From NCBI GenBank assembly GCA_044892525.1, contig CM097885.1, positions 29,328,001-29,392,000 on the forward strand: DNA of 64,000 nt, read 5' to 3'. The translations under genes were made by a program, and so were the position numbers. This DNA is from Schmidtea polychroa (Eukaryota). This document shows positions 1-42,722 of this stretch, piece by piece (position 1 is the stretch's first letter; every line of letters begins with the position of its first letter). The notes beneath the pieces are model-generated. The model did not search any database and had not been told where the DNA came from. It worked only from the letters and a program-made list of their open reading frames with translations.

Positions 1-978
1 AAGTTGTTTTAATTTTATTATCCACGTAAATTCTCATAAAAAATTTAATTCTCTGAGATGAAAATAAAGTTTGATTTGAATAATTAATTCATTAGAAAAA
101 AAAATTTGCAATCATAAAAAGTAATTTAGTTGTTTCAAAAAAATTTTTAAATTAAATTATATTTTGTTGGAATCATTTTTTCCTTTTCGAAATATTATGT
201 TTTTTTTTTGGATTCCACGTTATTTACAACCCCAGTCAAAATTTGATATTTGCTGTGGTTGTTGTTATTGTTCAAGATGAATAAGGTTTACCAAAAATAT
301 GGATAAAATTGTGGTTAATAACGGAGTTGAGCAGTTGATGGGGTATGCTTGTGTGTCTGTCTGTGTGTGTCTTTACGATTAAGTAGTTCACGGTACTTGT
401 ACATTAATCGGGGTTCTTTGTGTGTATCTATAAATGAGTGCACTTGCGTGTATGTGTGTGTCAATTTTCTTCAAAATTCATCCCAATGGTGAATGTATTT
501 CAATCTGATTGGTCAGTCATTCTACTTGTCAGACACAACCGCAAATTTTATTATCGACCCGGGAACAAAAATTAGCTCAACCCAATAACAGAATTGGTTG
601 TTTTTAAATATTTCTAGGGAGCGCATATTGAATTTTGGAAGCCATTGTGACTCGAATTTTCTGGGGCTTTTATTTTGATAAACCACTGATAAAATTTTTT
701 ATTTTATTGATTGCGGAAATCGATTTTTATGTGCAAAATATATGCCTAATTTATTCTCAGTTGCAAGGTAATTTATTTTTATTTTTTTTTCTTTCATCAT
801 TATTACTATTATTATTAATATTATGATTTAAAAATAATTTTTTGTTATTAATAACTTGTTGGTTTATTTCGCTCGCAGCATGGTAAAAAGTTAATCTCCC
901 CCGCACCGACCAACTGTTTACTCAGCCTGATAAGGTATCTGCGATGAACATTAATATTCCGAATGAATTTTTTCTTAT

Positions 979-1120
979 CCTGCGGTTTTTGACGTAGCCG
1001 ATACCGATAGGCTCTATAATAATTTTACCCTGTGGTTTCTTACGTAGCCGTGCTGATAAGCTTTCTAATTAATTACTCTGTAGTTTGTCAACGTAGTCTG
1101 TACTGATAAGCGTTCTATAT
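979..1120. repeat. Three degenerate ~48-nt tandem repeats in the 3' internal region of the retroelement
   Basis: Units of the form ctg(c/t)ggttt..acgtag(c/t)c..ctgataagc..cta repeated three times. Confidence 0.75.
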
Positions 1121-1657
1121 AAGTTTCTGCTTTACCACTTTTCGTTAGTTTTGTCTTGCCAATCTTGAAGTAAGCATTTTATATTTTCTTTTTCTTTTTC
1201 ATATATTTTTTTTTGAATTTTAGTAACGCCATCCCTCAATTACTATGGACGTAAGTGATTACTTATCTTTTGTTATTTTTTGTATTTGTGATTCTTTTTA
1301 CCATGCTGTCCTCAACTACCCTCATAGTAACCGAACACTTGCAATCGCTGTCGAGGGTAGCCAAACCCCGGTGATTGCAAGTGCTCGTGTTGCTTATTAA
1401 ATTAACTTATTGATGCTTATTAAATTAACTTATTTACTTTTTAATTTTAATTCGTTAATTTGTTTATGCAACTACCTACCCTCATGTTTTGGGTCATATA
1501 TTTTTGATTTTTGATTTTGTATTTATACTAAAAGCAAACCTCTAATTACAGCTACTCGTATTTTTCTGACAATTTTAGCCGTATTTATACTTATTAATTT
1601 ATTACGTAATTCTTAAAATCAATTACTTCCCTGCACTAACTATTTGTCGAGGGCGCC

Positions 1658-1960
1658 ATGGTACGGAGTTTTACCTAGTATTTATTTCATTTTTCTTTTC
1701 AACCCTTACTATTTTAGGCTGTCCCAGAACCTAAGTTTGAGCATCTCGATGTTATGCAATGGTTATTTGACTGCCATACTAACAGGATTTTTAATTTCTT
1801 TTTCAGGGTCCCTTTGCCACCGCGTCGAAAGGGATTGAAACGTACCTTTGCCTGTGTGGATACAGGCAGTAGGTTTGAAAGACGCCCGCCTTGCAATGTA
1901 CGCAGGGAATGGGACTGTGGCATCCAAAGTCCCGTTCTGTTGGACTCTGATGACGAATAA
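1658..1960 (+). CDS. Putative 3-exon small protein (~66 aa) antisense to the retroelement; exons 1658-1660, 1718-1761, 1807-1960
   Basis: gcgccATG|gtacgg...ttttag (57 nt intron; skipping it removes a TAG). Second intron gttatt...tactaac...tttcag (45 nt). Frame is continuous (MAVPEPKFEHLDVMQWVPLPPRRKGLKR...DSDDE*) and AATAAA follows the stop. Confidence 0.5.
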
Positions 1961-2419
1961 AACTTTGAATAAATGTTCAGCTTACCTTTGTTTTTAATTT
2001 ATGCTAGAAAGGGTGGGGTAATTGTGTCCCTCTTCGCGATTAGTCTTTGTTACTACTAATGTGAAATTATTCCTTACTTATTTATAATTTTGTTCTCTCG
2101 CCCAGTGGGTTACCCATTGCTATATAGTTATGCTAATTCATTAATTACTAATCAGCCATATTATTTATTTCTAATGCTCATTTAAGGTAGTCATTTCATT
2201 ATTTGCAACATTTATCTGAGTTATTCTATTTGCTCGTTTATCTTTGTTCATTTTTATCTATTATTCATTCATTTAATTTATCACTTTTTTACTTATTTAT
2301 TTATATCAATTTGTTTATTCATTTGATTATTTGTTAATTTACTTATAATTATTTAACTATTATTTTTTTTCTCGAGGACGAAAAAACACCAACAGGGTCC
2401 GTTGAAATAATTTATTTTT

Positions 2420-2665
2420 TTAGTCTAATTGATTTATCTCACCATCATCTTCCGATTCCTCCATTTCTTCTACTCTCATTCGAAACATCGCGAAATCGGC
2501 TTCGTGTTGAAACAATAAGATTTCCAAACGGTCCAACCGCCTTTTCAGACGGAAGTTTTCTTCCTCCAAATCTGTTATTCTGCCCTGCATGCTACGAAAC
2601 TTTTGTTTTAGTTCTTGCGTACTTGTTTTACACTCTTTGCATGTCATCCCCGAGGCTTCTTGCAT
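2420..2665 (-). CDS. 81-aa coiled-coil/leucine-zipper-like accessory protein with CxxC and acidic tail
   Basis: Heptad pattern ITDLEEENFRLKRRLDRLEILL; acceptor-like tttcAG 3 nt upstream of the ATG; same strand as the element. Confidence 0.55.
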   Translation of the reverse strand: MQEASGMTCKECKTSTQELKQKFRSMQGRITDLEEENFRLKRRLDRLEILLFQHEADFAMFRMRVEEMEESEDDGEINQLD

Positions 2666-2845
2666 TCTCTGAAATTAAATGATAGTTATTTTTTTTTGTA
2701 TCACTCTTTATTCGCAAAGCATCAACACCTCGCTTCGAATCTCAAACAAATTACACAGTTCATCCTATGGTACTTATAAAACATGCACATTGTTAATATA
2801 AATGTAATATATTTTTTTTTATACACTATTCATGCAGATCACAAT

Positions 2846-3972
2846 TTATAGTCTTGTCTCATAATATGAATATGATGGTGGTTGAAGGATAGTTAGTTGT
2901 CTCTCTTTTACACATATCAAGATGGTGATGATTATGAATGTTATTGATAAGATGAGAAACCCTGTTATTAGAATGTAAATGAGATATTCACAATAGTTGA
3001 CTGTCAAATCCGAATTTATCATCATTAGTTTATTTGAGTTAGGTTTTGTCGTCTCTTGGGTCGGTAATTGAAAAGGTGATGTGGTTGTATCTGATTTTCG
3101 TTTCGATTCATTGATTGTCTTGACTTCCACGAAAACTGTTTGCCATCTGCCTGGATCGGTTATCCATCGCTGATATTTAACTGTTAATTCCCATGCCGTC
3201 TCTAAATCAGAAGTGTAAAGTGTAAAAAAATGATTACCGGCATCTAATATAGTCAGGGTTTTTTGTTTGTAGATAATAACAACTCTTTCATCATTTCCTG
3301 ATTTTCTATATATCGTTACCGGTCCATTTCCAACACTCAGGGTTATACGATTTGACTCGTCTCTGAGATAGATAGACTGGGTCTCACTCTTAAATCGTGA
3401 CCATTGGTTTCTCACTACCGTTCCATTTTCGAGGCATATGTTCTCGTAGTAGTTTGCATTAACTGAATAATTTTGATTCATTTTCAATTTCTCGTAGCGG
3501 ATAAATGATTTTCGCGAGTTAAGGGTGTCGACATTTAACCCTTGAAATGTGATTCGCACTTTCACCAAGTCCACTGGCTTCCAATATATATATTGATTCC
3601 GTTTATCTCTGGTTCTATCTCGATCAAGTTTCGCATCTCTTTTGTGTGCAATTCTATCGGAATTTGCGTGTACCACTTTGACATGTTCTGTCTCAACAGC
3701 CATTGGTATTTGTAATTTGGCTTTAACCTTCGTACCGCAACTATATCTCTATCATAATTCAGTTCTACCACTGGTGCCGTATTGTCTAGTAGATTAATAA
3801 TTTCTATTTGGTCTGCGATCTCGCATTTACAGCTCCATACTATATTTGTTAGAGTGGAATATATATGTATTTTCTCCATTCCTCTGATTTTGTTTACCGC
3901 ATATGGTAAATCAATTTTTTTGCCGCTCGCAACTGTTACTAACATCAGCATTATTGCTACATATAATATCTT
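2846..3972 (-). CDS. Type I membrane protein fused after integrase: signal-like segment, two FN3-like domains, S/T-rich stalk, TM, PPSY tail; frameshifted at ~3585-3593
   Basis: KILYVAIMLMLVTVASG (3922-3972); IVW...RRLKPNYKYQW; removing one AT from the (AT)n run restores GINIYWKP...KLKMNQNYSV; TM ~2910-2987; QPPSY. Confidence 0.7.
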
Positions 3973-6723
3973 ATTGATGTAGCTGACTGGTGTTGGATTT
4001 TTCGTGAATTTCTGTTTCAATTTTGTTTGACCCGTTACTTTATTCTGCTTGGATCTTAAGGGGTATCTAGATTCATCTTCCTCTGGCACTAGTTTACATC
4101 GATTTGCATGCACAATCATCGGGTTAGCTTTTTTACTCCTGAATGGTAATAACTTCAAATTGGTTTCGGTGGTGTCGCACACTTTGTAGGGTCCTTTAAA
4201 TGGTCTTTGCAATTTAGGCGATAAACCTTTGAGAGGTTCCGGTCTGTTCAGATATACTAGATCTCCAATCTTTATGCCATGCGCATGTGCTTTTTTATCG
4301 TATGATTCTTTATATTTCTCTTGGTTGTGCTTTATTGTCAAACCGGCTTTAGTCCATACTGACTGCATTCTTTCTTGCATCAATGCTTTATAATCGGGTA
4401 TCTCCATATATTGTGAAATTGGTGGTTGGAATTTGAGATCAATCGGCATATTATTTTTCCTTAAATACATCAAGTAAAAAGGAGTTTCTCCTGTACTTTG
4501 ATTTACTGCATTTCTGTAGGCAAATAGACACGGCTTTATGAAGTCGTCCCAATCTTTCTGTTTTCGATTCACATATGATGAGATCATATTTATCAGTGTC
4601 CCATTAAATCGTTCCACCAATCCATCAGTTTGTGGATGATATGGTGACGTATTCAATTTCCAAATTCCAAATAAGTCTGTGATTGATTTAAACATCTCAC
4701 TTTGAAAGTTCTTTCCTTGATCAGTTAACAATTTCTTTGGAGTACCATAGCGAAATATTATGTTTTCCACAAATATTCTAGCAATCGTATCTGCTTTTTG
4801 GTTTGGAATAGCGTATGCTTCTGGCCATTTGGTAAAGTAGTCACAAAAAACAACAATGTATTTGTTTCCTTTTGTTGTTTCCGGTAATGGTCCCAGAATA
4901 TCCATTGCCGTCATCTCCATTGGTGCTGCAGGTACTGGCATCGGTTTTAATGGTACTTTAATCTTTTTACCAGTATTTCTGCGAGTGATGCATACTTTGC
5001 AACTGTTACACCAATTTTTCACGTCTTGTTCCATTGTTCGCCAAAAGTATTTCAATTTTAATCTTGATAGCGTCTTGCGCGTTGACAAATGACCTCCCAA
5101 CGCTCCATCATGATACTGCATCAGTAATGCATCTCTGTGCTTGACTGGTATAATAATTAATGCTTCCCCATTTTTCCAACATTGAAGTATTCCATTTTGA
5201 ATTACATATTTGCTGTTTGCATCTGTAAGTCGTTTCCAGTCTTGTTCTTTTCTTATTTTGACCGCTTGTTCCATAAATTGTTTTAATTCACTATCGTTTT
5301 CCTGATCATTTTGAAGTTCAGACATATCATTAACAGCTTTGATTGCTGCGAATATAGTGCCTTCCACTTTTTCAGGTGTCCCTTCACTATTATTTTCTGG
5401 GATTCTCGACATTGCATCTGCATTCGCGTTAGCTTTACCTGTCCGGTATTTAATCTCAAAGTCGTATTCTTGGAGGGCAATTGACCATCGTATTAACTTA
5501 CTGGCTGAATCTCTGTGTTTCATTAACCACTGTAATGGATTATGATCTGTATAAACAGTAAATTTTCTGCCCAATAAATATTGTCTAAAAGTAGTAATTC
5601 CATACACTAACGCTAACCTTTCCTTTTCAATCGTTGAGTAGTTTTTCTCGTGAGGCCTCAATGATCTGCTTGCGTATGCTATTACATGGTCCTTTTCACC
5701 TTCAAATTTTCGTCCCAATACTGCACCCAATGCAACGTTGCTTGCATCCGTCATCAAGATAAATTGTTTTGTAAAATCTGGACATCTTAATATAGGAGTT
5801 GTTACTAATTTCTCTTTTAATGTATTGAAAGCGTTTTGTTGCATTTGTCCCCAAATAAATTTATTGTTTTTCTTTAGTAAGGTATTCAATGGTTGTGCGA
5901 TATGAGAGAAATCTTTTATAAATTTTCGGTAATAGCTAGCCAAACCTAAAAATTGTCTAACCTCATCGGCATCTTTTGGTACTGGGTACTCTTCCACTTT
6001 TTTGATGTTATCTGGATTAGTTTGTAACCCTCGCCGTGATATTATATGTTCTACATAAATCACTTCTGCTTTGCCCCATTCACATTTCGATGGTTTGATT
6101 TTTAATTTTGCACTTTTGAGCCGTTTAAATACAGTTTCTACATCTTTCAGATGTTCTTCAAAATCATTTGAAAATATTATTATATCGTCGATATATACCA
6201 ATGCATGTCGAATTCCTCGTAACACATAATTCATTCCTCGTTGGAATGTAGCTGGGGCTCCTGTTAATCCAAATGGTAACACATTGAACTCATACAGTCC
6301 TTTGCCATCCGAGAACGCCGTCTTTCCTCTATCTTCCTCTTTTACTCTAAATTGATTGTACCCTTTGTTTAAATCAATAACTGTGAAATATCATGCCTCT
6401 CCCATTTGATCAAACATTTCTTGGGGTACCGGAATTGGATAAGTGTCTTTCCTTGTAACTTGATTTAGCTTCCGATAATCTACGCAAAATCGTAAGTCTC
6501 CATCTTTTTTCTTAACTATCACTATTGATGAGGAGAATGGTGACGCGCTATCTCGAATTATTCCAAATTCCTTCATTGCTGTAATCTGTCTATCGCTTTC
6601 ATCTTGATGAACGTAGGGGATTCTGTATGGCTTTATTTTTATTGGAGTTTCGTCTAATAACGGTATTTCATGCTCAATTACATTGGTTAAACCTAAATCA
6701 TATTCGTGTTTAGCAAAGATATC
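3973..6723 (-). pseudogene. pol: pol: reverse transcriptase, RNase H and integrase; in-frame TGA at 6391-6393
   Basis: RFCVDYRKLN, PFGLTGAPATFQ, YIDD, TDAS, TDHNPL, H-H-C-C zinc finger, MDILGP/TDQG/GLVER (DDE), KGPYKV. The sequence between the ORF-track pieces translates in the same frame. Confidence 0.97.
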
Positions 6724-9700
6724 TCAGTATTTTCTCAACAGTTTTGTAAATTCCTTTTTCTGCATCTCATTTAAATCATTGCTTACCACTTCAGGCTCCT
6801 TATACACTTTGACGTTTCTTGGTATTTTGCAATTTGTTTCAATAGACATTTTTGATAATTTTCCCAATTTTGTTTTTGGGTGTAGCTGAACCGGTTTCTT
6901 ACTGCTATTCGTTATATGGACTGGTACTATCTGATTTTCCACTTTGACAACTTCGTCACATATCGGTAAATCATATTTTTCGACTAGCGTTTGATTTGGT
7001 TCGAATATAAAATCACCATTATCCACACTCATGGTATTTGCACAATATACCATCTCCGATTGTGGTGGTATTGTCAATGTCTGATTCACAAACACTTCAC
7101 CTGCCCTGTGAATTATTTCTCCTGTTTCTCCTGCTATCAAATTACCTGTCTTTAAATCAAGTGAGACTCCGTCCAGCTGCTCTAATATATCCATGCCGAT
7201 CAGACATCGTACTGGACTTCCCTTCATTATGAGCGCATCGTGCGCTATTATTCGATCTCCAATATGGAATATGACGCTAAGTTGTCCAATTATGTTTAAT
7301 TCATTTTTTGATAATGACCTCACTATTTCGTCGGTAGGCTTTATTCGCATTTTTTCCTTCGCGTTTAATACATTTTCCGATACTATTGTGTGACTAGATC
7401 CCGAATCGACTAAAGCTTCCACTTTATGTTTGTTCATTTGTATAAATATTCGGGGTTGCTTTCCTCTTTTTGTTAATGTCATCATTGAGTAGTTGCATGG
7501 TAAGCCTAACATATTTTTTCTCTCGATCTCTGCGCTAGAAGGCTCGATTCTCTCTCCTACCATTCCTTCACATTGTAATGCGATATTTTCCACTGGTTTC
7601 ATCTCTCGTAATCGATCAACTGGATACACTGGTGATGGTTGCATAAATGATTTTGGTATACACAGTTTTGTAAACGTGTCTACGCTACTCGCATTCAACA
7701 GTGGCTCTTTTAAGATTTGATAGGTTCTTAACGCTTCTTTATTCATTCCACTTAGTTCTTGATTGTCAACATATAACGGTGCACTATCACCCTCGTCATT
7801 GTCATTGTTCTCGTCCCTTGAAGGGGTTGTACTAGCGTAGCTCACCTTTTTCTTCTTTAATATTCGAGCCTTGAGTATCTCCAACTCCTGATATTGATGA
7901 TGAGTAATGAAGAATCTAGCCAATAATGGTATGCAACCAATTACTAGTTTCCACGACCAACCTGTGATCGCATATAATCTGTGTGTTGATAGGACCTGCG
8001 ATATTATTACTTTGATTACAACACATATTACATAAATTCCAATCAATCCGGCACATGCTTGTCCAATGAACATAAACTTTCCCCAGATCTTTTTCATTGT
8101 ATTATACGTCGCTTTCTTGTAATGATCTGGAATTAACAAATACTCATAATTTACCTTCCCACTTCCGCTTGGGAGAATTGTATCTACCATTTCCATTATT
8201 ACTCTTTCTTTCTTTGATGGAAATAACAAGTTTCTGCGAGCTTCCTCAATGTCTTCGTTCGAGTAAATTCCACTTTGCGACAATTTTTCTAACGACGTAA
8301 AATTTACCAGATATTGTAATTCTGTCAATTCTAAGTTTTCCGGTGTCTTTACTTCTCGATGATCTGGTAATGCAATCCAAGATTCTGGTGTTAGTCTGTA
8401 TAATGGTGCTAACAATCTATTGCACTGTAATACTTTCGGTTTCGCGTCCTCTTCCAATAAGATTCGTGTTACAGGCTCCATAAATCGCAACTTTCCATTT
8501 AAATTCACTGGTAACTCGTTGGTGCATTGGTCATACTTTGTCAGTTTAACTGGTACCGCTTTACATTTATAGCTATATAGTGCTTCACCGAAAATTCTGG
8601 CGAACACTCCATTTTCTGCAATTAACATTGGTGCTACCAAATTAGGATTGGTTATAGCCATTGCCATCCGATTTCGGAGTATTTCTTTGTTGAGATTGCA
8701 ATCATTTATAATAACTTCTCGGTACACATTTTCAACAGTATTTTGACCAAAGTGAAATAAATAATCTATTTTGTTATTAAAGTAATTTGTCAACTTAATA
8801 TCTCCGGCATGTATGTTTGTTTGGGCCTCTGTAATCATCTTCTGAGATACATATATACCTTTATAATTTGTCTCATAGACACTTTGTCCACACTTTGTTT
8901 TAGTTTCTTTTCTCAGGAATCGCATCCCATCTTCCTCCGAGGTTGACATTAACACTGTTGGAGTATCTTTCATCCGTAGAGGTGTGATTCTTGTTGTTGT
9001 ACTCGTTGCTGGATCCATTCTTATTTTCTCAGGCTTTTCCCTGATCTGTTCTCCCGTTATTTCTTTAAAACTCATTGACTTCAATTGCACTAAATTGCAC
9101 TTTTTGGTATCGACATCGTACACCAAGATTGATTCTCCTGTCTGACAGCTAGATTGTTTCATGTTGCAGAATGGATGTGTTTGTAGTTTACCAGTATCAT
9201 CATCAAATGATCCATCAAATTCTCTTAATTCTGACATGTACTCTTCCACAACCACGGCTTTGTCCATTATAGCATCGTCTACTTTGTATGGCTCGCCTTG
9301 GCAATCACCATTCGACTTTATTATCCCTCGCACGGTTACAGTCTCACGGATTTTGTGGTTAAGCTTTGCTTGTAGTTTGAGATCTGCATTGATTTTCAAC
9401 TGTCCTGTTTGAAAGGCTGCCAAACAATTCTCTGGAATTATTTCTATCGGTCTAGGTATCGATTGCATTTTCACCATCGATGAGTGACTCCATTTTCCAC
9501 AATAAAATACAAAAGTAGTTCGTTTCACTGTACACTCTCTCACCTTTGCTCGTCGAAATCCCGATTCTTGATATACATAATATTTTACTGGATTTGTCAC
9601 TTTAAATTTTACTGGATATGCATCTGAACACTCTGCTACGTTTACCAACGAATATACTCTTCCTATTTCGGTTTGGGAGCAGTCGTATGCCACCAATGAA

Positions 9701-11709
9701 TTCGTCGTGTTTATTATTCCCAATAACATAATAACAGAAATCATCAACCATGGAAATGCGAGTTTTCCCTTTTTCCTCACTGTCTTGGTTTTTGGGCTCT
9801 CAGCCTTTTGTATCAAATTTTCCCATCCGCCATTGTTTGCGATCCACCTAGCCAAATATTTATTCGTCATTTCCGTAGCTTTCTTTATCAATGATTTTGA
9901 ACTGTCATTTTCCAGACAACCATAAATACCAATCTCCAATATTATATAGGCTAACACTGTCAATATTACATCTCGATCTAACTCAGTTCGTGTTAGGTCC
10001 TCAATTACTGCTTCCTCACAAAATTCCTTTTCTTCATAATTTCTTTTAATTATCGACGGTAATCTCCTCTTTAATTCCGTTGCCAATCTTTTTACAACTC
10101 TTTCCTCCCCCTCCGAAGTATCATCTTCTGTTTCAGTTTCATCTAACAAGTACAATTCCGTAACTAAACTTTTTAATATTCGTTCAGTCTCGTTTGATTC
10201 ATCTAATCGCTCAGTTTCGCTCGATTTATCTAAACTCAAAGATTCAATTTCCGCATCATTCTGTTTTTTCCGACATATCGCAATGTCATTTTTCGTTTCA
10301 ACGAAGTTCTCTTCGCTCTTCATCTCATCTATGCTCGGTAGTACCCTATTATCGGTGCTCGTTTCCTCGATATCCCTTGCAAATTCATTTTCCGATCCCA
10401 TTTCCTCATTTTCTATTGTTTCTAATCTCTGCAATTCATTAATTTCTTGATCAATTTCTCCTGGGTCATCTACAACTTCAGTTTTAATCTCCACATTATT
10501 ATTATCCATTTCATCATATAGAGGCCAAAACGGTACTATTACCGCATCTCTTTCCATTTCATCACTTTGTTTTGTTGCGTACACATTATTAATACAATTT
10601 GGGTTACATCCGTAGTTTAATAAATATTCGTCATCATCCAATTCTCGTCCTTTGAACGTCAACACGATAATTCCTTCATTACCTAATATCTCCGCTGCTT
10701 TTTGTCGTATTTTCTTTGCTTTTACACTCCAATGTTCCTGATAATATTCAATCCTTTGATCCGCAATATTTAACGCTATTATCAAAGACTTCGCACTATC
10801 GTCTGCCGCCTCATAATCATGTCCTAGTTTTCGGATTACCTCTTTTAGTTTTGCCTGATAACTCGTCGGTTTATTCGTATACGGTACGATGCATTCAAAC
10901 AACCCTTCTTTCATGTCTCGATCCATTTCGATGCTCATTATGAAGTCGATACTCGCATTAATTTTATCTCTATTCCCTGCATACAGGGTATCTTGTAAAT
11001 CTGCTAGAATCTTTTCCCAATTTTGTCTGTCTGAATTCAAAGTATTAACAGCATTAATAACATTTACTTTATTTTTCCAGCCTGGTATCAGACCGCAATC
11101 TACTAAGTACTCTTCGTCTTCCAGACATCGATTTTCGAATTTTAATTGCACTTGCCATCCACTGTATTGACGCAGTATTCGCTCCTTTAACTCTCTGATT
11201 TGTCCGTAGGCATTTACACGGAATTGGCACTTCACATTATCAAGTCCCGTCGTTTCCACTATGATATCAGCTAAATCCCTTGTTGACCGTAAAGCCTTGC
11301 CAAACCTTTGCATTTGTTTAAGTATCTCATCGTCTCTGTTTCCTTTGAATAACTTTGCACATAAATTTATGGCTCTCTTTAGTTCGCTTTGGGTTAGTGA
11401 CATCACACTGAGTTCTGCGATCCATCGTTTCAACTGGGAGTTGTCAGTTTCCATTTTCTCAAGCCATTTTTCAACTCGGGCTAACAGTGCAGTTGGATTC
11501 TCATCTGAAGTGATCTTTCGCACTTTCGTGGCAGGTTTTCCCTCACCTTCTGACACGGTTCCAATTATCATATGAGATTCAGTTTCCTCATCTGATTCAA
11601 ATTTCGCCACTAGTTTGTTTAGCTTCTGTCGCATTTCTCGAAATTCCTTTTCCATTTTGTCTTGAAATTCCTCTCTCTGAGCATATGTCATGTTACTGGT
11701 GTTTGGCAT
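6724..11709 (-). CDS. 1661-aa polyprotein segment: helical + ubiquitin-like (x2), acidic linker, Bcl-2-like domain, signal/TM, chuvirus-like glycoprotein, aspartic protease
   Basis: QLKFENRCLEDEEYLVDCGL and VLTFKGRELDDDEYLLNYG (ubiquitin-like); LARWIANNGGWENL (BH2); LVAYDC and GEALYSYKC..V.V....C.NELPV...F.EPVTRIL (glycoprotein); ALVDSGS and LIGMDIL (protease). Confidence 0.9.
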   Translation of the reverse strand: MPNTSNMTYAQREEFQDKMEKEFREMRQKLNKLVAKFESDEETESHMIIGTVSEGEGKPATKVRKITSDENPTALLARVEKWLEKMETDNSQLKRWIAELSVMSLTQSELKRAINLCAKLFKGNRDDEILKQMQRFGKALRSTRDLADIIVETTGLDNVKCQFRVNAYGQIRELKERILRQYSGWQVQLKFENRCLEDEEYLVDCGLIPGWKNKVNVINAVNTLNSDRQNWEKILADLQDTLYAGNRDKINASIDFIMSIEMDRDMKEGLFECIVPYTNKPTSYQAKLKEVIRKLGHDYEAADDSAKSLIIALNIADQRIEYYQEHWSVKAKKIRQKAAEILGNEGIIVLTFKGRELDDDEYLLNYGCNPNCINNVYATKQSDEMERDAVIVPFWPLYDEMDNNNVEIKTEVVDDPGEIDQEINELQRLETIENEEMGSENEFARDIEETSTDNRVLPSIDEMKSEENFVETKNDIAICRKKQNDAEIESLSLDKSSETERLDESNETERILKSLVTELYLLDETETEDDTSEGEERVVKRLATELKRRLPSIIKRNYEEKEFCEEAVIEDLTRTELDRDVILTVLAYIILEIGIYGCLENDSSKSLIKKATEMTNKYLARWIANNGGWENLIQKAESPKTKTVRKKGKLAFPWLMISVIMLLGIINTTNSLVAYDCSQTEIGRVYSLVNVAECSDAYPVKFKVTNPVKYYVYQESGFRRAKVRECTVKRTTFVFYCGKWSHSSMVKMQSIPRPIEIIPENCLAAFQTGQLKINADLKLQAKLNHKIRETVTVRGIIKSNGDCQGEPYKVDDAIMDKAVVVEEYMSELREFDGSFDDDTGKLQTHPFCNMKQSSCQTGESILVYDVDTKKCNLVQLKSMSFKEITGEQIREKPEKIRMDPATSTTTRITPLRMKDTPTVLMSTSEEDGMRFLRKETKTKCGQSVYETNYKGIYVSQKMITEAQTNIHAGDIKLTNYFNNKIDYLFHFGQNTVENVYREVIINDCNLNKEILRNRMAMAITNPNLVAPMLIAENGVFARIFGEALYSYKCKAVPVKLTKYDQCTNELPVNLNGKLRFMEPVTRILLEEDAKPKVLQCNRLLAPLYRLTPESWIALPDHREVKTPENLELTELQYLVNFTSLEKLSQSGIYSNEDIEEARRNLLFPSKKERVIMEMVDTILPSGSGKVNYEYLLIPDHYKKATYNTMKKIWGKFMFIGQACAGLIGIYVICVVIKVIISQVLSTHRLYAITGWSWKLVIGCIPLLARFFITHHQYQELEILKARILKKKKVSYASTTPSRDENNDNDEGDSAPLYVDNQELSGMNKEALRTYQILKEPLLNASSVDTFTKLCIPKSFMQPSPVYPVDRLREMKPVENIALQCEGMVGERIEPSSAEIERKNMLGLPCNYSMMTLTKRGKQPRIFIQMNKHKVEALVDSGSSHTIVSENVLNAKEKMRIKPTDEIVRSLSKNELNIIGQLSVIFHIGDRIIAHDALIMKGSPVRCLIGMDILEQLDGVSLDLKTGNLIAGETGEIIHRAGEVFVNQTLTIPPQSEMVYCANTMSVDNGDFIFEPNQTLVEKYDLPICDEVVKVENQIVPVHITNSSKKPVQLHPKTKLGKLSKMSIETNCKIPRNVKVYKEPEVVSNDLNEMQKKEFTKLLRKY

Positions 11710-11757
11710 ATCTTCTTGGAATCTGATTGATTTCTTTAAGATAGGTCTGCTGAATCT

Positions 11758-12849
11758 TTATGAGTTCCTTGGGCATGATCGCGCCATGTGGCCGTATCCC
11801 TTGCACGAGTGACATTGGATCTGTCCATTTGTATTCACTTTGTCCCTTTGTGGTGAAGGTGACGTTGACGATGACCTTGATCTGGTAAAACAGTTTCTGC
11901 TAATATGCCCTTTCTTTCCGCATCGATAGCATTCGACATCACTGCTGATCCGTTTGGTTTCTGTGAATCTCTTGTTAGGGCTGGGATTTTTCCCATATTT
12001 GAACCAACATTGATTTGAGTAGTGTCCAGACTTTTTGCAATGTTCGCATTGAGGATTATTTACCTGTCCATTTGATTGTACGTTCATGGCTGATCTACTG
12101 GCTTGAAATCTATTATTTGGTCTCAAAATTGGACTACTGATCTGATTTATTTTCTTTTCATCCCATGGTGCTCTCACAGGCGTAATTGATCGCTCACGTC
12201 TCTCCACATTAACTCCAAAAGCATCTGATCTTTTTGCACTTTTTAAATTCAGCTCTATCTTCATGGCTTTCTTCACGAGCTCATCAAAATTGGAAAAATC
12301 CACATAACATAGGGCTTTTTTGATTTCGGAGTGGACTCCGGTTATAAACTGATCTTCTAATAGCTCTTTAACCTGCTTGGCCATATCTGCTTGGTCTGGT
12401 TTAACTTCAAAGGCTTTATCTGCTAAAGTGGTCAGATGATAAGCAAACTCACTGACCGATTCATCTGGACCTTGAACTCGATTATAAAATTTCTGTCGCA
12501 TGATTCTTTTGATATCTCCACCAACCAGTTTCAGTGCCATTGCATCCTTCAATTTTGTCCAATCATTACCAACATTTCGTTTGTCGACTTGCTGCCAGGC
12601 TTCTCTTGCCGCACCCTTCAGATAGAGTGGGAATCTCTGAACCATAATGGCTTGTGTCCATCCGTATGCTGAGGCGTACATATAATAATCTCCCATGAAA
12701 TCTGCAAATTCAACAGGGTCTCCTCCATATTGATTGACGGGTAATTTCTGGCAACTTGCGAAATCAATCATCTCTCTATTGAGAGGCATAACAGCATTAT
12801 CATTTGCCATTTGGACTTGTTTCTGACTTCTGAGGTTGTATCGGTTCAC
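11758..12849 (-). CDS. gag: Gag with capsid region and three CCHC zinc knuckles (GTG start at 12849; first ATG at 12810)
   Basis: LKGAAREAW, QGPDESVSEF, DQFITG; CEHCKKSGHYSNQC, CYRCGKKGHISRNC, CHSCKGYGHMARSC. Confidence 0.95.
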   Translation of the reverse strand: MNRYNLRSQKQVQMANDNAVMPLNREMIDFASCQKLPVNQYGGDPVEFADFMGDYYMYASAYGWTQAIMVQRFPLYLKGAAREAWQQVDKRNVGNDWTKLKDAMALKLVGGDIKRIMRQKFYNRVQGPDESVSEFAYHLTTLADKAFEVKPDQADMAKQVKELLEDQFITGVHSEIKKALCYVDFSNFDELVKKAMKIELNLKSAKRSDAFGVNVERRERSITPVRAPWDEKKINQISSPILRPNNRFQASRSAMNVQSNGQVNNPQCEHCKKSGHYSNQCWFKYGKNPSPNKRFTETKRISSDVECYRCGKKGHISRNCFTRSRSSSTSPSPQRDKVNTNGQIQCHSCKGYGHMARSCPRNS

Positions 12850-13113
12850 TTTGAGCTAAACGTCAAACGTTAAACAATAATTTAAAATTACTTTTCAACT
12901 TCTTTTAAATCTCCCAATAATAGCCTTTTATAATCTCGTTAACACTATTTTCAAACCTCTAAGCCGACTTTCACTCACGTCAGTACTAATTCTTTTTATA
13001 ATTCCTTTTTCACTAGCTTCCAATAATTTCCCTCCGACTTTCAATCACGTCGGTACTATTTTCCAATAATTAATTCTTTCACTGACTTTCAATAATTTTC
13101 CGCCGACTTTCGA

Positions 13114-13131
13114 ATCACGTCGGGCTCACCA
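13114..13131 (-). promoter_or_regulatory. Primer binding site complementary to the tRNA-Trp 3' end
   Basis: Minus strand TGGTGAGCCCGACGTGAT. Plus strand 13109-13131 TTCGAATCACGTCGGGCTCACCA matches the animal tRNA-Trp 3' end as I recall it (..GGGGTCACCA) with one mismatch; 7 nt from the LTR edge. Confidence 0.9.
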
Positions 13132-13138: not shown

Positions 13139-14199
13139 TGTTGGGTTTTGGATTATTTCAAGTCGGTTCTCTCTGACTCCTGGTGTTCTTTAAATTAAAA
13201 CAATGAACGACCCAACGTATATTGAAACAACAAGTTCACAATGTATTATCACGCTACAATTACCAATCAAAGTTTTATACGATTCTCCGCTCGGCGTTGA
13301 TGCTTTGCCAACAAACAATATTCACCTTTTGTTCCTTTAGTTCTCTCGACTCTCTTTTTCCTCGGTTTCTCTTTGGTTTGATCCCTTTCTGCCTTTCCGT
13401 ATTCTTAATTCTATTTCTTCTTTTCCCTACTTCCCTAAATTCGTTTTTTACCTCTCGACTATTCTCGATTCTTCTTACCCTACCTGAGGCAAAATGCCGA
13501 TTTTCTCTGATTTTCCCTTTGCTTATATACTCCTCGAAATCAGGATGACAAATGGTTATTGTCGAGCCAATCTTTCGTTTGACATTTTCTCCTACGTGTT
13601 TGCTTCGGCTGTCATCCATAATGGTCCAACGAATCCAGATAATTAATGGCCCTACCGGTCTTCCTACGCGCGCTATCTTCTCCTTACTCTTTTCCCATTA
13701 ATCATCGTGTCAAGCTAATGGGCCCAAATCTTCCTTTTGTTTGCCTTTCTTCTTGTTTACCCAGCTCGGGTTTCCTTTATCTCTCGGGTTCTCCATTGGC
13801 TCGGGTTTCCCATTAGCTCGGGTTTTCCATTAGCCAATTAATTAATTAATTAACGTTTTCTGTTTTCATACATTTGAATGTTTTTCGACCCTTCCTAACC
13901 CTTTTCTGATAAATCCCTAACCATCATCTTGTTGACCATTAGCTAATCTATACCTGTCCCGTTTTTCCCATTCGATTTCGATGATTTTTCCCTTTATTGA
14001 TTTTTCTCGGATTTCCGGATTCTCGCCTTTCGTAATTGCTTTTGGCATTTTCTAATACTGTTTCTATCACACTTTCCTTTACTATTGATTCTGTGCACGA
14101 TCCCGCTTTTATTTGCCTTTTTTTCCTCGCTTACTTTCCATTTGAATTATTATTCTAAATTTTATTTAAATTTTTAATTTTAATTTACAGACCTCAACA
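13139..14199 (-). repeat. 5' LTR (~1.06 kb)
   Basis: Ends TGTTG...CAACA; adjacent to the PBS; unrelated gypsy RNase H coding sequence starts at 14200; four 17-18 nt ctcgggtt(t/c)cc repeats at ~13763-13835. Confidence 0.85.
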
Positions 14200-15709
14200 T
14201 TATTTTTGCATTCATTTTAAGCACTATCTCTACGGAAGAAGATTCACGCTCAGGACAGACCACAAGGCAATCACGTTTATGATGACAACCTAGAAGCCGA
14301 TTACTTCACAATTCCAAACACGGATCAATTATTTGAGCAGTTTAGATATAAGAGTAGAATACAGAAAGGGTATTAATCACCAAAATGCAGACATGGTGTC
14401 GAGAACTAAATGTGACACGTGTGTTCAATGTCAAATGGACCACGAAGAAGGTAAGAAAGGAAAGATAAAAACCAGATTACTAGACTCGATCAGAGAAGAA
14501 GGAAGAAGCAACATCCAACATGGAATTGTAGAAGAAGTACGAAAGAAAACGATGATACCTGAAAATGAGTTACAAGAAACAATAAAGGAAATACATAGAC
14601 TATTGTGTCATGCTGGAGTCGAGAAGATAGCCGATTATATGAAAGATAGATATGTTGGAAAACACCTGTGGAGTCAGATTCAGGAAATTGTTCGAAGTTG
14701 TCAGATTTGTCAAAAAACCAAGGCTTTAACAATAACAACGAAAGAACCATTAAAAAAACAAGATTCGAAGGAAATGTTCGAAATTATATTCGTGGATATA
14801 TGTGGACCGTTGACAGAAACAAAAGGACGTAAGAAGTATATATTGGGCGTAATAGATCAGTATAGTAAGTATCAAGTCTTGACGGCGATAACAAAACAAG
14901 ACGAAGAAAAAATAAAGAAAACGATTTTAGAAAAGTGGATTTTAAGATTTTGATGCCCAAAGGAGATAAAAGTTGATTGCGGAAAGGCGTTCGAATCAGG
15001 AATGATGAGAGAATTCACAAAGATGCTAGATATTAAATTATGTTTTTCGAGTCCATACCATCACCAAACAAACGGTCAGATAGAAAGACAATTCCGGACA
15101 ATACGGGATTTGACAAATGCTACTTTACAAGATAGAAAGAAGACGGATTGGGCAGAGATATTACCAGAAGTCGAATTCACTTTAAATGCAACCAAACAAA
15201 AAACGACAGGGAAAAGCCCGGCAGAGATAGTTTTTGGAAAAAAGATTAGCAGGGAAAAATACCGATAAAGGAAGAAATAGAAGAACAAACAAGGAGAAAA
15301 TTCAATGTAGGAGAAGAAGTATTAGTAAAAGTAGAAACACGCCACAAAGGCCAGGACAGGTAAGAAGGTCCGTACAAAGTGATAAAGAAAGTGCATGAAA
15401 GACGATACATCTTAAGAAATGAAGATGGAAAAAGGATCGAAAGAAATGTGGAAAAACTTAAAAATTTCTTAAGAAGGGGGATATGAGGAAGTTTTTTGAT
15501 GAAGAAATTTTTAAATTGAAAATTTTAAAAATTAAATTTTAGATTAAATTTTAAAAATAAATAAGAAGATATTTTAATTAAAAATATCTTCGTAGAAAAT
15601 TTGTTTAAATAAGAAAGTTTTAAGAAGATATAATTTGATACTGATATTTACTGAAATAAAATTTATGGAAGCATAAACTGATTTTAATGTTTTACAGGAT
15701 GAACATCCT

Positions 15710-15712
<3 letters not shown>
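14200..15712 (+). mobile_element. 3' part of a second, decayed gypsy element (RNase H end, integrase, PPT, partial 3' LTR) interrupted by the large element
   Basis: YFCIHFKHYLYGRRFTLRTDHK from 14201; FVDICGP, VDCGKAF, NGQIER, EGPYKV with stops; PPT aagaaggggg 15471-15480 then TG at 15484; runs into (TA)n. Confidence 0.9.
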
Positions 15713-15765
<53 letters not shown>

Positions 15766-18681: not shown

Positions 18682-21600
18682 CTTCAAGGTGAAAATGAAA
18701 TAAACAATTACATTTATTCATGTACCATAAATGACCTAATAAGCACTATATAATGGGCCGAATCCTAAAGAAACCTTTTAAAAAGAAACCTTTTAACCTT
18801 TTAAGAAACCTTTTAAGTCGGAGCATCGTTTTAAATTTCATTAAATAAAAACTTTCTCGTATCCTAATTAACTGAGACTTAATCATTTTCTTAAGTTAAA
18901 AAAGATTCTCTAACAAAACTTTCAATGGGTGGTGAAGTCTTTTAAATTAGTAAAGCAATGTTACATGTCGCGAAATTTCTCAGATGTGTACGGAATTCGA
19001 ACCCCGGAGTGTGTCTATAAATTTCCCCAAATCGTTAAAGGGTAGTGCTGGACAATTAAAATATTAGCCTCACAGGATTGCTTAACACCAAATGTTAACA
19101 GCGCAACAATTGTCGATACCAAACGTTGTCGACAACAGTTGCTCTAATGTGAATCACTGCATTACATTCAATATGTTTGATAAAAGAAAAATTGCTATCT
19201 TGCACACATGCATTGACATGGGTGTGCATGAGTTGCACATGTAGAGGTTTATGTAGTATGGACGGGGGTAGGATGTTCCATCTATCTGCCTCACTGGAAG
19301 AGACTGGCATGTGAAGTCGGTGGCGTGGGTAGGGTGCGTGCTGTCTGTCTTTCCTGCCTCACAGGCAGTAACAACGCATGGAGGCATGATTGAGTGTCAG
19401 AGCACGGAGTGGGTGCATTGTGGTCTTTATACGATGGATGGTAGAGAGATAGGCCAATGAGAGCACATCACATGTCATTATACTCAACTCACTCCTATGG
19501 CAGAGTGACATGTTAATTGTTCATATTTTGTAACATTATTTTCATCGTATTAGAACATGTCGACACAAAAGAGTATCATGAATTTCTTCCAAGTCATTCC
19601 AAAGAATTCTGTGACTTCAGTCACTTCATCCAGTGATAGTATCTCTGCTACTATGTCCTCAACTTGTGGTAGTCCTTCATCTGTACCTGCTATTTCATGT
19701 ATCCGTGACAGTGCAGTGATGTCCTCATCTTCTTGTGCACCTGCTAAGACTCTGTCATCTACTAAATGTGATCTGGGTGAAGAAATGCCACGCCAACCAA
19801 CTGATGTAAATTTCCCAAAGACTTCGTTTGGTTCAAGGGAACGCTCATTTTCGTCTGTGTGGTATAATGGAAGACCATATTTGGAGTACTCTATTGAGAA
19901 AGATGCAGTCTTCTGCTTTTGCTGTAGAAAATTTTCATTGCCCGGCTCTGCTGGCGAAAGTGCTTTCAGAACAGGAGGATTCCGAAATTGGAAATCGGCT
20001 TTAGAAAAAGGAAAAGGTTTTCAAAAGCATGAATCTTCTGCTGGCCACATCCATGCCATGGAACGCTGGAAAGAGAAACAGCTGAGATGTGAAAAAGATG
20101 AGGAAGTTTGCACTTTGATTAATGAAACACAGCTGAAGAACAATCGTTATTATGTCAACGAAATCGTTGACGTTGTAAAGTTTCTTGTGACAAATGAATT
20201 AGCCTTTCGTGGTGACAGTTTCAGTAGAGATGATATTGATGAGGATGATAAGCTTCCGTGTGGTCTATTTTTACGTCTCTTCGAATACACTGTTAAGAAA
20301 AATCCTGAGCTGGCTCGAAACATTAAAACGATTCCCAAAATTGCCACGTACACATCACCTCGAATTCAAAATGAAATTATCGCGTTAATGGCATCAATAG
20401 TGCAAGAGTCAATTGTTAAGAAGTGCAAGTCTGCGGATGTTGAATATTTTACTCTGAAGGTGGATGGTACCAAAGATCGAACAGGGACTGAGAATGTGTC
20501 GATTGCCATAAGGTTTGTCTCAGCAGGACAACCTCAGGAGCACTTAATCTGCATTTCCCGAACAATTGCTCTCAATGCAGAGGCCTTCACAGATGTAATT
20601 TTGACAACCTTGAAAGAGGCTCAGTTGGATCCTAAAAATATAATTTCCCAATGCTATGATGGAGCCGCTGTTATGTCTGGACAGCATGGTGGGGTGCAGG
20701 CCTTGCTTCAGGAGCGTCTACAAATAGAAATTCCGTATGTCCATTGCTTCAACCACAAGTTGCATTTGGTTGTTGTGTGTGCGTTTCTGAGTGCCAAAAA
20801 CTGCGGGACTTCTTCGACATATGCAGAAACTTATACACATTTTTGTCATATCCTAAGGTTGCGGCCATATATCAAGGCGATAAATTGACACGGCTCATGG
20901 AACATCGTTGGACAGGACACTTGCAGACGACTCAGACAATAACAACTAATTATGATACAATTGTGAATTTGCTTGAGATGTGTTCTTGTAGACATTCTTA
21001 CTTTTCAATTGATATTCAATTGGAAGCTACTGGACTCTTGCATCAAGTCAATGAAGTGGAGTTTCAGTTCATTGCACACATGGTGCTCTCATTGCTGACT
21101 ATCCTTGAAACAGCCAACAATAGCTTGCAGGGTCAAGCAATGGACCTTTCTTCAGCATGTGATGTTATGGATGCCGGCATAGAGCGCATTCGCAGCCTAC
21201 GCAATGAAGAGGAATTCCAAGTTCTTTTTGGGAAATTCGAAGGTCAAATGGATATGGAACAGACACCAAAAAGAAGAAGAACTCAGATGAACTCAAAATT
21301 AGACAACTTCATTGTGTTCGGATCTGTGGGACAGCCAGAACACCAGGCCTTGCCTATCAGATGCGCATATCGCCAGATGTATTACGAAGTCGTTGATAGG
21401 ACTCTGCAGGAACTAACAAAACGCTTCGGTGTCACCAACAGAAGCCTTTATAAGTCTCTTGCATGTTTGAAGACTGATCACGCAAACCTTTTGAATATTG
21501 AGGAGCTAAAGACTTTAGCGACACTGTGTGGCGTGGACCTAAGCGAAACCCAACATGAATTTGAAACTGCAAAGGTTTTCCTATTGAAGAGAGCCAGTAC

Positions 21601-22303
21601 TGTGACAAACGTTCATCAGTTAGTGCAAGAACTGTACTCATACTGAGATGCTTTTCCATATGTCTATCGTCTTGCAGCTTCTGCACTGACAATCGGTGCT
21701 TCAACTGCCACATGTGAGGCGACTTTCAGTACTTTATCTCGTGTCTTAACTCCCTTTCGTACGTCGATGAGCCATTCTCGTAAAGCCAACCTTGTATTGC
21801 TCTCATTTGAAAGTGACATCAGTAATAACATCAAATCTGATGAGTTTCTTCGGCGGTTTCATGAAATGAAAAATCGTCGACTGCAGCTATTTTGAGTCAT
21901 GTCGATATCTCACACACGTAATTTCTTTTTTTCTGGATCTAGTTCCTGTGTAATTTCTATTGCACTCACCTTTAGTTTTCAAATCTGTGTGACTGTGTGT
22001 TCTGTCTTTGTATGTCCAATTGTCCGTCGTGCAAATACATGCAGCTATTTGTTTTTTGTGTTTGTTCCTAAAAAATGTGCGAAAATCATTTCCTATATAC
22101 TAGTATATGCAATAATGTAGCAAAATAATGCTCAGACAAAATGTCGATTTTGCTTTCCTTTTTTTTAAATTGAACATTTCGGAGTGCAAAGTGTGAGTAG
22201 TGACTAGTCTGTTTTCATAAAATACTTAGTTTACACGAGAATTACTGGCCCCCTTAATGAGAGTCTGGGCCCCCCCGTCAAAAGGTGTCACGGTACGGGC
22301 CTG
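18598..22303 (+). mobile_element. Full-length hAT DNA transposon (3706 bp)
   Basis: 14-bp TIR CAGGCCCGTACCGT; 8-bp TSD AGTCATCA at 18590-18597 and 22304-22311. Confidence 0.97.
19557..21895 (+). pseudogene. hAT transposase (TTF-type zinc finger, DUF4371-like region, C-terminal dimerisation domain); frameshift ~20780 and TGA at 21644-21646
   Basis: FCFCC..F, VDGTKD, QCYDGA, HCFNHKLHL, RW, STATCEATFS, RRLQLF*. Confidence 0.93.
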
Positions 22304-36516: not shown

Positions 36517-36552
<36 letters not shown>

Positions 36553-36705
36553 CATTTTTTTTTATTTATTTATTTTTTATTATTCTAATTTATTTATTTA
36601 CTATTTATTTATATTTATATTTTTATTATTTTATTTTATTTTATTTTTATTTATTTATTTTATTTTTTATTTTATTTTTTTATTATTATTTTTATTATTT
36701 TTATT

Positions 36706-36736
<31 letters not shown>

Positions 36737-36749
36737 TTATTATTATTAC

Positions 36750-36840
<91 letters not shown>

Positions 36841-37034
36841 TTCATTATTATTATTATTATTAAGATTTACAAAATTATTATTAGTTTTCATAATAAATTA
36901 AGACATTAAAAGATATATTGAATCACAGATCAATTCGATAACAGTACGTCATCTATATCAATATCATTGGCATCATGGGCTTCATTGTCATCATTATTGA
37001 AATCTGGACTCATTCCGCTAAAAAGTGGACGAAT

Positions 37035-40000: not shown

Positions 40001-40884
40001 ATATAACTATGTCCAGCTAGCCTATTCATATGTGTATTTTTAGTTAAGATAAAATCTATCTCTTTGATTTCAACTACCCGCCATCCGCTACCCAAATATG
40101 TGAACTTTTCAATTTTATTATTTAATCTGGTGATTCCATTAATCAAAAAATTTTCTGAAAAAACTTCTGCGCTATTAGAGAAAAAATTATCTCTAATTTC
40201 CCCATCTTTTTCGAATTGGATTAAAACGGTGAATTGTATTTTAACTGTGCCCATACCTACGATTTCGGCAATTAATTTATTTATAATTTTATTTGTAAGG
40301 GAAATTTGCACCAAGTTATCCTTTTCCATATTAAAGCGTAAATTTTTTCCCGCCCCCTTAAAATCGACTTCTATTTCTGGTTCATCGTCAATATCGATCG
40401 AACTCTTATTATTTACTGAACCACCTATTTGATTATATACAGAATCACCAGTTGTATTAATTTTAATAATTTTAGAGGGAACACCAGACCCAAAACTAAC
40501 AGCAGGTTGTTTATTATTTAGAATATTATTTATTTTAGTATTTAGATTAGTATTATTTACATTATTATTTACATGTTTTGTATTATTATTTATAGGTTTT
40601 GTATTTATGTGTTTTGTGGTATTATGTGTTGATTGTTGTATTTTAATAAACAATTTCTTTTTATTTAAAGAGAACCGATTTAAATGTGATTTGTGAATAT
40701 TATAAAACTCTATATATTTAATGCTTTGGGAAGTCTCGCATATTGGACATATAAAGTAGTTGATGCCATAGAATCTATGACCGTAGTATTTTTTCATATT
40801 TTTATGGCATATATTTGTATGATCATTTGATGACATGCAGTAGCGTGGGTATAATTTACCTGATAAATTATAAATATATATCAA
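37035..40884 (-). pseudogene. polB: Protein-primed family B DNA polymerase with OTU-like and endonuclease VII-like domains; two in-frame stops and several frameshifts
   Basis: DDMCFIYS..FHY; YADFE, HNMRGYD, YLKLDV (exonuclease); CYLC..DHCH..G..ACRKCN; DINNLYG, KLYNNSLYGK, GDTDS, LRPKCY, KGV. Confidence 0.95.
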
Positions 40885-42233: not shown

Positions 42234-42483
42234 TACGTTGCGGTATTTTAAAACTTAAATATATTTTAAAAACACATTTTGACACTAAATTTGATTTATT
42301 TAAAATTTTCATAATTTGCATTAATTTCATGATTATTTTCAATATTTTCATGATTGTTTTCTTCAAAATCTTATATTATTTACAAATTATTATTACTATT
42401 ACTATTATTATTATTATTATTATTTTTATTTTTTATATTATTATTATTATTTTATTATTATTAATATTTTTAATATTATTTTT

Positions 42484-42550
<67 letters not shown>

Positions 42551-42722
42551 TTTTTTATTATTTTTATTTTTTATTATTATTATAATTATTATTATTACTG
42601 TTATTATTATCATTATTATTATCATCATTATTTTATTATTATTATTAATATTATTAATATTATTTTTATTATTATTATTATTAACTTTCATATTATTAGT
42701 AACTTTCAAGGGATTTTATTAT

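Follow-up and report, generated by a model that had tools for sequence, protein, structure and literature searches.

A single-frame retroelement polyprotein on the minus strand

We analyzed a 64,000-nucleotide stretch of the Schmidtea polychroa genome (GenBank assembly GCA_044892525.1, contig CM097885.1, positions 29,328,001 to 29,392,000; hereafter the window), and focused on a retroelement polyprotein encoded between positions 2846 and 12849 on the minus strand, the strand of every feature given below unless stated. A first-pass annotation had read the open reading frames (ORFs) at this locus as one polyprotein containing Gag, two ubiquitin-like domains (UBL1 and UBL2), a Bcl-2 domain, a fusion glycoprotein (G), protease (PR), reverse transcriptase (RT), RNase H (RH), integrase (IN), and a membrane protein with fibronectin type III (FN3) domains. 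We found that one frame spans 12855-3565 and ends at 3564; its only interruptions are single stops at 11760, 6726, and 6393. The terminal domain is encoded by a second frame, 3748-2849, which overlaps the end of the first.

We searched for sister copies in the 781-Mb AT-rich animal genome assembly that holds the window. Stop 11760 was missing in all four other copies covering that site, stop 6726 in 9/9, and stop 6393 in 10/10, with six of the ten copies behind the latter two counts having been picked for long frames. The last piece is set apart by a frameshift near 3590, which lies inside a short AT run. A query with this piece yielded 131 scored matches among 1387 candidates; 120 of these start at residue 51-54, that is, without the shift of the window, while ten (the window among them) start at residue 1-3 and one at residue 32. 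Nine non-window copies match the piece from its beginning; of the four inspected, three have the frameshifted state of the window. A query with the glycoprotein region yielded 70 scored matches among 3268 candidates, with an identity of 98-100% in all. An open frame of 3334 codons was present at 9/70 scored glycoprotein matches, seven of the nine being stop-free within the match, and at 7/131 scored terminal-domain matches; six places were common to both lists. After correction of the indels seen against other copies the window span is also 3334 codons, so the 3334-codon frame extends over the whole polyprotein, Gag start to terminal tail.

With these results, we conclude that the four same-frame pieces are one polyprotein, and that sister copies carry it unbroken with both glycoprotein and terminal domain. 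Three stops and a frameshift in the window copy could suggest that the long frame, or its inserted domains, is an artefact of this copy or of the assembly. We give this explanation a negligible chance, because sister copies are open over every break, and because a public run under a second organism code (B) contains a contig of 10,761 bases that spans 2363-13062 with 285 differing letters. The open 3334-codon sister frames refute it. The first-pass claims of a single frame broken by single stops, of a frame slip leading to the last ORF, and of one polyprotein with the listed domain order are thus borne out, and the inserted domains are in frame in sister copies that are open throughout. Genome copies differ from the window by ~2%, and the window holds a young yet decayed copy of a recently amplifying element family. 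Two copies (L003 and L004) lie 1.26 Mb apart with flanks 99.7% alike, which marks them as a segmental or assembly duplication.

The polyprotein ends in a predicted FN3 membrane protein

The region following the integrase begins with hydrophobic segment 3 (3904..3993), which by hydropathy is the signal sequence of the terminal protein and is also found in sister families. It is followed by three tandem FN3 domains (3113..3903, frameshifted near 3590 in the window copy), and then by a terminal transmembrane (TM) helix with a cytosolic tail of ~20 aa and a class I PDZ-type end (2846..3007, stop at 2846-2848). We modeled the FN3 region with AlphaFold on the matching stretch of an intact copy (L010), using an 8-sequence alignment. 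The model was all-beta with a mean pLDDT of 76. Foldseek returned 274 rows at E <= 0.001, led by CD45 d1-d4 (E 1.6e-8), fibronectin repeats, and Tie2; other receptor ectodomains, LAR and gp130, were also among the matches. VIA-align returned mostly FN3 modules in three consecutive segments, at Z 7.2-9.2 (middling by the tool's own note) and a single-domain root-mean-square deviation of ~2-3.5 A. ESM Atlas assigned the post-integrase ectodomain to fn3 (0.92, with a low recognition score), and a search of Pfam (including fn3) and of PDB sequences gave no useful match to it. Taken together, the predicted fold firmly indicates that the terminal ectodomain consists of tandem beta-sandwich modules of about 90 residues of the FN3 type, in agreement with the membrane protein proposed in the first-pass annotation.

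We searched 1.84 billion representatives for homologues of the FN3 protein and found one credible match and none to a specific host receptor. The distant homologue P0001 is a 410-aa stand-alone protein on a 2,778-base metagenome contig, and has a signal, a homologous ectodomain that is ~21-24% identical, a TM helix, and a PDZ-type end. A further candidate, P0002, was rejected as a repeat artefact. A search for relatives in metagenome or viral contigs found none.

The sequence S/T-x-V/L/I is the class I PDZ-binding pattern. We found a PDZ-type C-terminus in five of six element families (described below), in P0001, and in a copy of the related element Burro, compared with a background of 0.038 per position. 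A PPxY-like tail motif was rejected as a general feature, being present in family A only. We conclude that the post-integrase FN3 membrane protein is a well-supported, apparently undescribed module. Its place at the end of the polyprotein could be explained if the tail needs a free C-terminus to engage host PDZ scaffolds, with a sorting or attachment role in cell-to-cell spread, a proposal whose chances we see as even. A PDZ-bound tail would target either the particle or its site of assembly to a particular surface or junction of the cell, and the FN3 protein would be the adhesion or attachment partner of the fusogen during spread between cells within the animal.

The terminal protein is under purifying selection in six families

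Searches with diverged queries identified at least six families in the genome with the same terminal protein, which is 35-47% identical to that of the window family. Long open frames of 3334, 3419, 3437, and 3346 codons were found across families, and one more, of 3329 codons, is known by its listing row only. In the terminal ectodomain, nonsynonymous divergence (pN 0.17-0.43) was lower than synonymous divergence (pS 0.58-0.84) in 15/15 family pairs, and dN/dS was 0.14-0.30 in the five unsaturated pairs. We conclude that the terminal FN3 ectodomain is under purifying selection in six families. This result carries weight because the domain follows the integrase, where its loss would spare Pol.

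The same result bears on the idea that the element transposes only within the cell, makes no extracellular particle, and keeps G and the FN3 protein as relics or as intracellular membrane tethers. With Pol downstream of G, in-frame cargo would be shielded from stops and frameshifts. Such shielding fails for the FN3 protein, which lies after the integrase yet is under purifying selection in all six families, and G itself retains a full ectodomain, signal, and TM helix. We therefore regard purely intracellular transposition as improbable.

We also identified Pol-less in-frame derivatives in family A (L001, L002), family B (L022), and family C (L033, L034). These lack RT, RH, and most or all of IN, and keep G and the FN3 protein. 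Because they were found via long open frames, their in-frame state is partly a selection effect. L001 and L002 have a common junction, as do L033 and L034, indicating that these forms were themselves copied, and a related Pol-less joint is present in public runs X1 and X15. Splicing was rejected as their origin, since the junctions of families A and B fall on short shared words and lack a GT-AG pattern; for family C, the view of the junction is limited to its 3' side. A better fit is template switching. A 485-aa accessory ORF (L022:6167-7624) with no credible Pfam match follows the polyprotein of family B.

The retention of G and the FN3 protein in Pol-less derivatives of three families could also be explained if the FN3 protein acts off the particle. 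It would then act as a modulator at the cell surface by mimicking FN3 receptors, for instance receptor phosphatases or cytokine receptors, or by serving as their decoy, and together with Bcl-2 and the UBLs would keep the producing cell alive or in its niche. The receptor ectodomains that lead its fold matches (CD45, Tie2, LAR, gp130) are in line with this, as is the other host-modulating cargo of the element. Against such a role, the FN3 protein shares a frame with G and Gag and would be made 1:1 with them at the same membrane, and the search described above gave a single credible homologue and no specific host receptor. We consider a modulator possible, on the unlikely side, and favor a sorting or attachment role in cell-to-cell spread.

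Among the 24 public runs listed, 18 contain the stretch, under three organism codes, and none is recorded as RNA. We compared four of these runs, all of which consist of contigs, with the window. The best pieces under the third organism code (C) were ~99% identical, and identity under the three codes was about 97-99%, similar to the spread of copies within the genome. If the organism codes stand for well-separated species, this similarity would point to recent transfer between planarian species.

Domains from Gag to integrase

The domain order in the sister-copy frame is Gag-UBL-UBL-Bcl-2-signal-G-TM-PR-RT-RH-IN-signal-3xFN3-TM-tail. Gag, CCHC, the fusion glycoprotein, PR, RT, RH, and IN are firm Pfam domains that score above cut-off. 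Thus, of the domains first proposed, these and FN3 stand firmly, the assignment of Bcl-2 is moderate, and those of both UBLs are weak. Gag (11761..12810) starts at the first ATG at 12810, comprises a capsid region (Pfam Retrotrans_gag, E 1.8e-9) and three CCHC knuckles (zf-CCHC, E 2.1e-11), and has a premature stop at 11758-11760 in the window copy.

UBL1 (11056..11280) matched Pfam ubiquitin below cut-off (E 0.0023), and nine of ten rows in its comparison with PDB sequences were ubiquilin or ISG15 (E 0.35-1.4). UBL2 (10573..10797; Pfam E 0.082) resembles UBL1 over 29 residues and aligns, at a probability of 73% and E 3e-5, with its counterpart in a Burro copy. The two assignments are weak yet mutually consistent. 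Between them lies a four-helix spacer (10800..11050), which is the sole confident part of a joint UBL-UBL-Bcl-2 model and gave generic helical-bundle matches only. The putative Bcl-2-fold domain (9790..10200; Pfam E 0.0019, below cut-off) closes with a BH2-like motif. In sister family B the Bcl-2 match reached E 6e-5 over the full model, still below cut-off. The best matches of the domain in ESM Atlas were BCL2L15 and BID (0.90-0.91).

Hydrophobic segment 1 (9685..9771), assigned by hydropathy as the signal sequence of the glycoprotein, occurs at the same place in family B and Burro, and may double as a tail anchor of the Bcl-2 domain. The fusion glycoprotein (7966..9684; Pfam PF24664, E 1.9e-93) is Monjiviricetes/chuvirus-like and belongs to the gB type of herpes simplex virus (HSV). 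It had no match among PDB sequences, and ends in a C-terminal TM helix found by hydropathy (7966-8082). Downstream are the aspartic protease (7168..7461; Pfam RVP and gag-asp_proteas, E 4.5e-7) and a spacer between PR and RT (6727..7167, with a premature stop at 6724-6726), which is the site of a dUTPase-like domain in Burro; Pfam gave no dUTPase match in this spacer, and PR with the spacer is 23% identical to a Burro copy. These are followed by RT and RH (5464..6723; Pfam RVT_1 and RT_RNaseH, premature stop at 6391-6393) and by the integrase (4068..5151, lower bound approximate) with its H2C2, core, and C-terminal regions (Pfam Integrase_H2C2, E 8e-19; rve, E 3.5e-12). A scan for protease-site motifs gave scattered candidates only.

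Relation to Burro and other described elements

Arkhipova and Yushenova (2019; PMC6431247) described Burro/GYPSM1 as giant planarian gypsy elements with a single ORF and a Gag with three CCHC motifs, in the order Ubi/SUMO-like, BCL2, in-frame mononegavirus-like env, and PR-RT-RH-IN. Burro measures >30 kb with its LTRs and 4873 aa, has cargo of MATH, BIR, and ankyrin domains, and has an HHpred-based dUTPase-like domain between PR and RT. In the window family, too, a single ORF places env in frame after gag and before pol, and Ubi/SUMO-like and BCL2-like domains, which score below curated cut-offs, precede env. Identity between the window family and a Burro-type copy of the same genome was 33-37% in G, 52% in RT-RH, and 56% in IN. 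An integrase tree of seven rows, all from one genome, placed Burro together with the FN3 families, apart from two gypsy rows of the ordinary kind, with support 100/99, and is weak given its few rows and long outgroup branches. The link to Burro made in the first-pass annotation is supported.

The window family differs from Burro in its smaller size (17.7 kb and 3334 aa), in its two UBL-like units, and in what follows IN: three FN3 domains come immediately after it here, and ankyrin repeats with an unrelated ectodomain in the Burro copy. MATH/TRAF, BIR, and ankyrin gave no Pfam match in the ORFs of the window element, although ankyrin and MATH were readily detected in the Burro-type copy and BIR elsewhere in the genome. 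This Burro-type copy (L040-L042) has a RING ORF upstream of gag, and ankyrin repeats after IN followed by a signal, an ectodomain of ~260 aa, a TM helix, and a tail; further downstream are a TRAF-like RING-MATH ORF and coiled-coil ORFs. The section of PMC6431247 on Burro makes no mention of a terminal membrane protein. On the basis of one Burro copy, a terminal membrane protein with an exchangeable ectodomain may be a trait of the whole clade. A BIR-domain ORF, mostly of 392-393 codons, forms a very high-copy family in the genome (150 scored matches) and is probably Burro1 B-IAP, which, as relayed second-hand in PMC13465017, protects stem cells.

Chary and Hayashi (eLife 2026; PMC13524379) describe flatworm, nematode, and bryozoan GAG-ENV-POL elements whose ENV is of the HSV/gB type, and their supplement lists Smed_errantivirus_2 with 215 copies. 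In a comparison by eye limited to the env piece, 246/251 residues of the window ENV are identical to that entry. Gag-env-pol gene order and high copy number are also shared, and as judged from the env piece the window family is the catalogued Smed_errantivirus_2. The supplementary table gives no long terminal repeat (LTR) or tRNA for this entry, whereas we found LTRs and a tRNA-Trp site. The gB-type env of the window element lies between gag and pol and is flanked by a signal and a TM helix, which makes the element an errantivirus in the sense of that study. The main text, as far as available, has zero mentions of Bcl, fibronectin, accessory, polyprotein, or Smed, so the study appears to leave both the cargo and the post-integrase protein without annotation.

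Among other systems, Atlas virus and related nematode Belpaoviridae (PMC9094657) resemble the window element in having one stop-free polyprotein with a C-terminal membrane protein. They differ in belonging to the Bel/Pao lineage, in that the terminal protein is a phlebovirus-like fusogen, and in lacking a second fusogen ahead of Pol. Capture of the same glycoprotein type by an LTR element of another superfamily is seen in mosquito Bel/Pao elements that carry a chuvirus glycoprotein (PMC7642597), which PMC13524379 also mentions. The accessible portions of PMC11410931, PMC13238120, and PMC8532177 contain nothing on the architecture of such elements. We found no published description of an FN3 or PDZ-tailed protein in gypsy elements, a provisional absence given that Repbase or published figures may show one. 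The novelty first claimed for the whole architecture therefore does not extend to the layout up to the integrase, which is already published for Burro; the window family itself is catalogued in PMC13524379, and apparently only the terminal FN3 membrane protein is new.

A model for a membrane-threaded polyprotein

Hydropathy over the polyprotein showed a signal before G, the G TM helix, a second signal, and the terminal TM helix, in addition to one internal helix of Bcl-2. This order of signal, TM, signal, TM agrees with the topology first proposed. We think it quite likely that the precursor is threaded four times through the endoplasmic reticulum membrane, that signal peptidase cleavage gives G and the FN3 protein free N-termini, and that the element protease cuts the cytosolic parts. 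Co-translational threading would place Gag, the UBLs, and Bcl-2 in the cytosol, G in the lumen, Pol in the cytosol, and FN3 in the lumen, and signal peptidase would release G and the FN3 protein as two type I membrane proteins. Gag and Pol would be made tethered to the membrane carrying G, such that Pol reaches particles as a G tail and not as a Gag-Pol fusion. From the domain order alone, it follows that Pol is synthesized as a cytosolic extension of G with an anchor at either end, and that Bcl-2 directly precedes a hydrophobic segment. Cellular Bcl-2 proteins are tail-anchored, with a hydrophobic segment right after the Bcl-2 domain. The first signal could similarly leave the element's Bcl-2 tail-anchored, delaying death of the producing cell; Burro1 B-IAP would be a precedent for anti-apoptotic cargo (PMC13465017, second-hand).

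Overall, the element is probably a compact Burro relative, a GAG-ENV-POL Ty3/gypsy "errantivirus" with a membrane-threaded polyprotein and a terminal FN3 protein. Several observations weigh against this interpretation or parts of it. Likeness to the FN3 fold by itself shows no function. Family E has no PDZ-type end in 3/3 complete ends, and the PDZ-motif tally is not independent, because the families share ancestry. The joint UBL-UBL-Bcl-2 model was poor (mean pLDDT 45.5), with a beta-beta-alpha-beta pattern shown twice, and gave no fold match at E <= 0.001; UBL and Bcl-2 scores lie under Pfam cut-offs, and the presence of these domains was examined in families A and B and one Burro copy only. 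The signal and TM assignments were made by hydropathy alone. At the sequence level, the terminal ectodomain of one Burro copy showed no detectable homology to the FN3 profile.

The first-pass proposal of an enveloped, virus-like lineage stays an inference. A more ambitious reading of these sequences has planarians hosting a radiation of infectious, enveloped Metaviridae, six families strong at least. Two proteins would make up the envelope, a class III fusogen and a three-FN3 protein for attachment or sorting with a PDZ-binding tail, and both would be cut out of a single membrane-threaded polyprotein. Pol-less satellites would add structural protein, and the window family may recently have crossed between planarian species. 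We regard the combination as rather doubtful. The element bears on the open question of infectivity and cell choice in env-bearing gypsy elements outside insects, and a main regeneration model harbors such elements in abundance and at young age. The layout up to the integrase adds little here, given the Burro publication. The terminal FN3 protein may assist the element in reaching, binding, or altering cells, and a conserved second membrane protein offers a handle for antibodies, RNA interference, and binding assays beyond what the fusogen alone offers. If the FN3 protein sits on particles, there would be a division of labor between attachment and fusion in a Metaviridae member, of which we found no report.

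Element anatomy and surroundings

The element extends past 2846-12849 on both sides. With its tRNA-Trp primer site, it is a young and complete Ty3/gypsy LTR element of 17.7 kb. Its 5' LTR (13139..14199) is about 1.06 kb with TG...CA ends, and its 3' LTR (L008:6030-7073) lies outside the window, ~2.4 kb before the window start. The two LTRs differ by two mismatches and one 18-nt gap; other copies start at the identical base and have different flanks. The element totals 17,670 bp and is flanked by a 4-bp target duplication, and a polypurine tract is visible in L008. In the primer-binding site (13111..13131), 21/21 bases pair with the 3' end and CCA of a tRNA-Trp gene of the same genome. Paired LTRs, primer-binding site, polypurine tract, target-site duplication, and the Pol order PR-RT-RH-IN (from Pfam positions) place the element in the Metaviridae. 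The tRNA-Trp genes form a tandem array with a 284-bp period on C4 (from about 55.02 Mb; L044), the source of the primer tRNA, and the pattern matches 821 times in the genome.

The leader (12963..13121) contains 2.3 copies of a 69-bp repeat that includes words like the primer-binding site, as detected by Tandem Repeats Finder and self-BLAST. Directly after the polyprotein lies a small coiled-coil ORF (2420..2674; 84 codons stop to stop), a candidate accessory gene with weak coiled-coil rows only in Pfam. It was stop-free in 11/11 family A copies, one of which matched over residues 1-68 only, and had no match in two family B loci. The long 3' region (1..2419) is common to other copies and reaches the polypurine tract and 3' LTR ~2.4 kb past the window start. 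Two overlapping small ORFs within it, at 1714-1998 (minus strand) and 1718-1960 (plus strand), are mostly open among family A copies, which are too young for selection to show.

The element is nested, in opposite orientation, in an ordinary gypsy element that it splits within the RNase H region; pieces of this host element lie at window 14200-15713 and L008:3201-6029, and its terminal matches span 233 bp at 98.7% identity. Exons of a host TCP-1/CCT chaperonin gene (L008:670-1122, L009:8061-8687 and 1382-1795) lie on the minus strand, ~5 kb past the 3' LTR. Elsewhere in the window we found a frameshifted hAT-like transposase (19554-21646, DUF4371) and Polinton-like fragments encoding a protein-primed DNA polymerase B (36100-45600), with inverted and direct duplications and long TAA runs. 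By eye, we also recognized decayed gypsy gag/protease pieces together with non-LTR (R2-like) RT-endonuclease pieces at 50009-53777.

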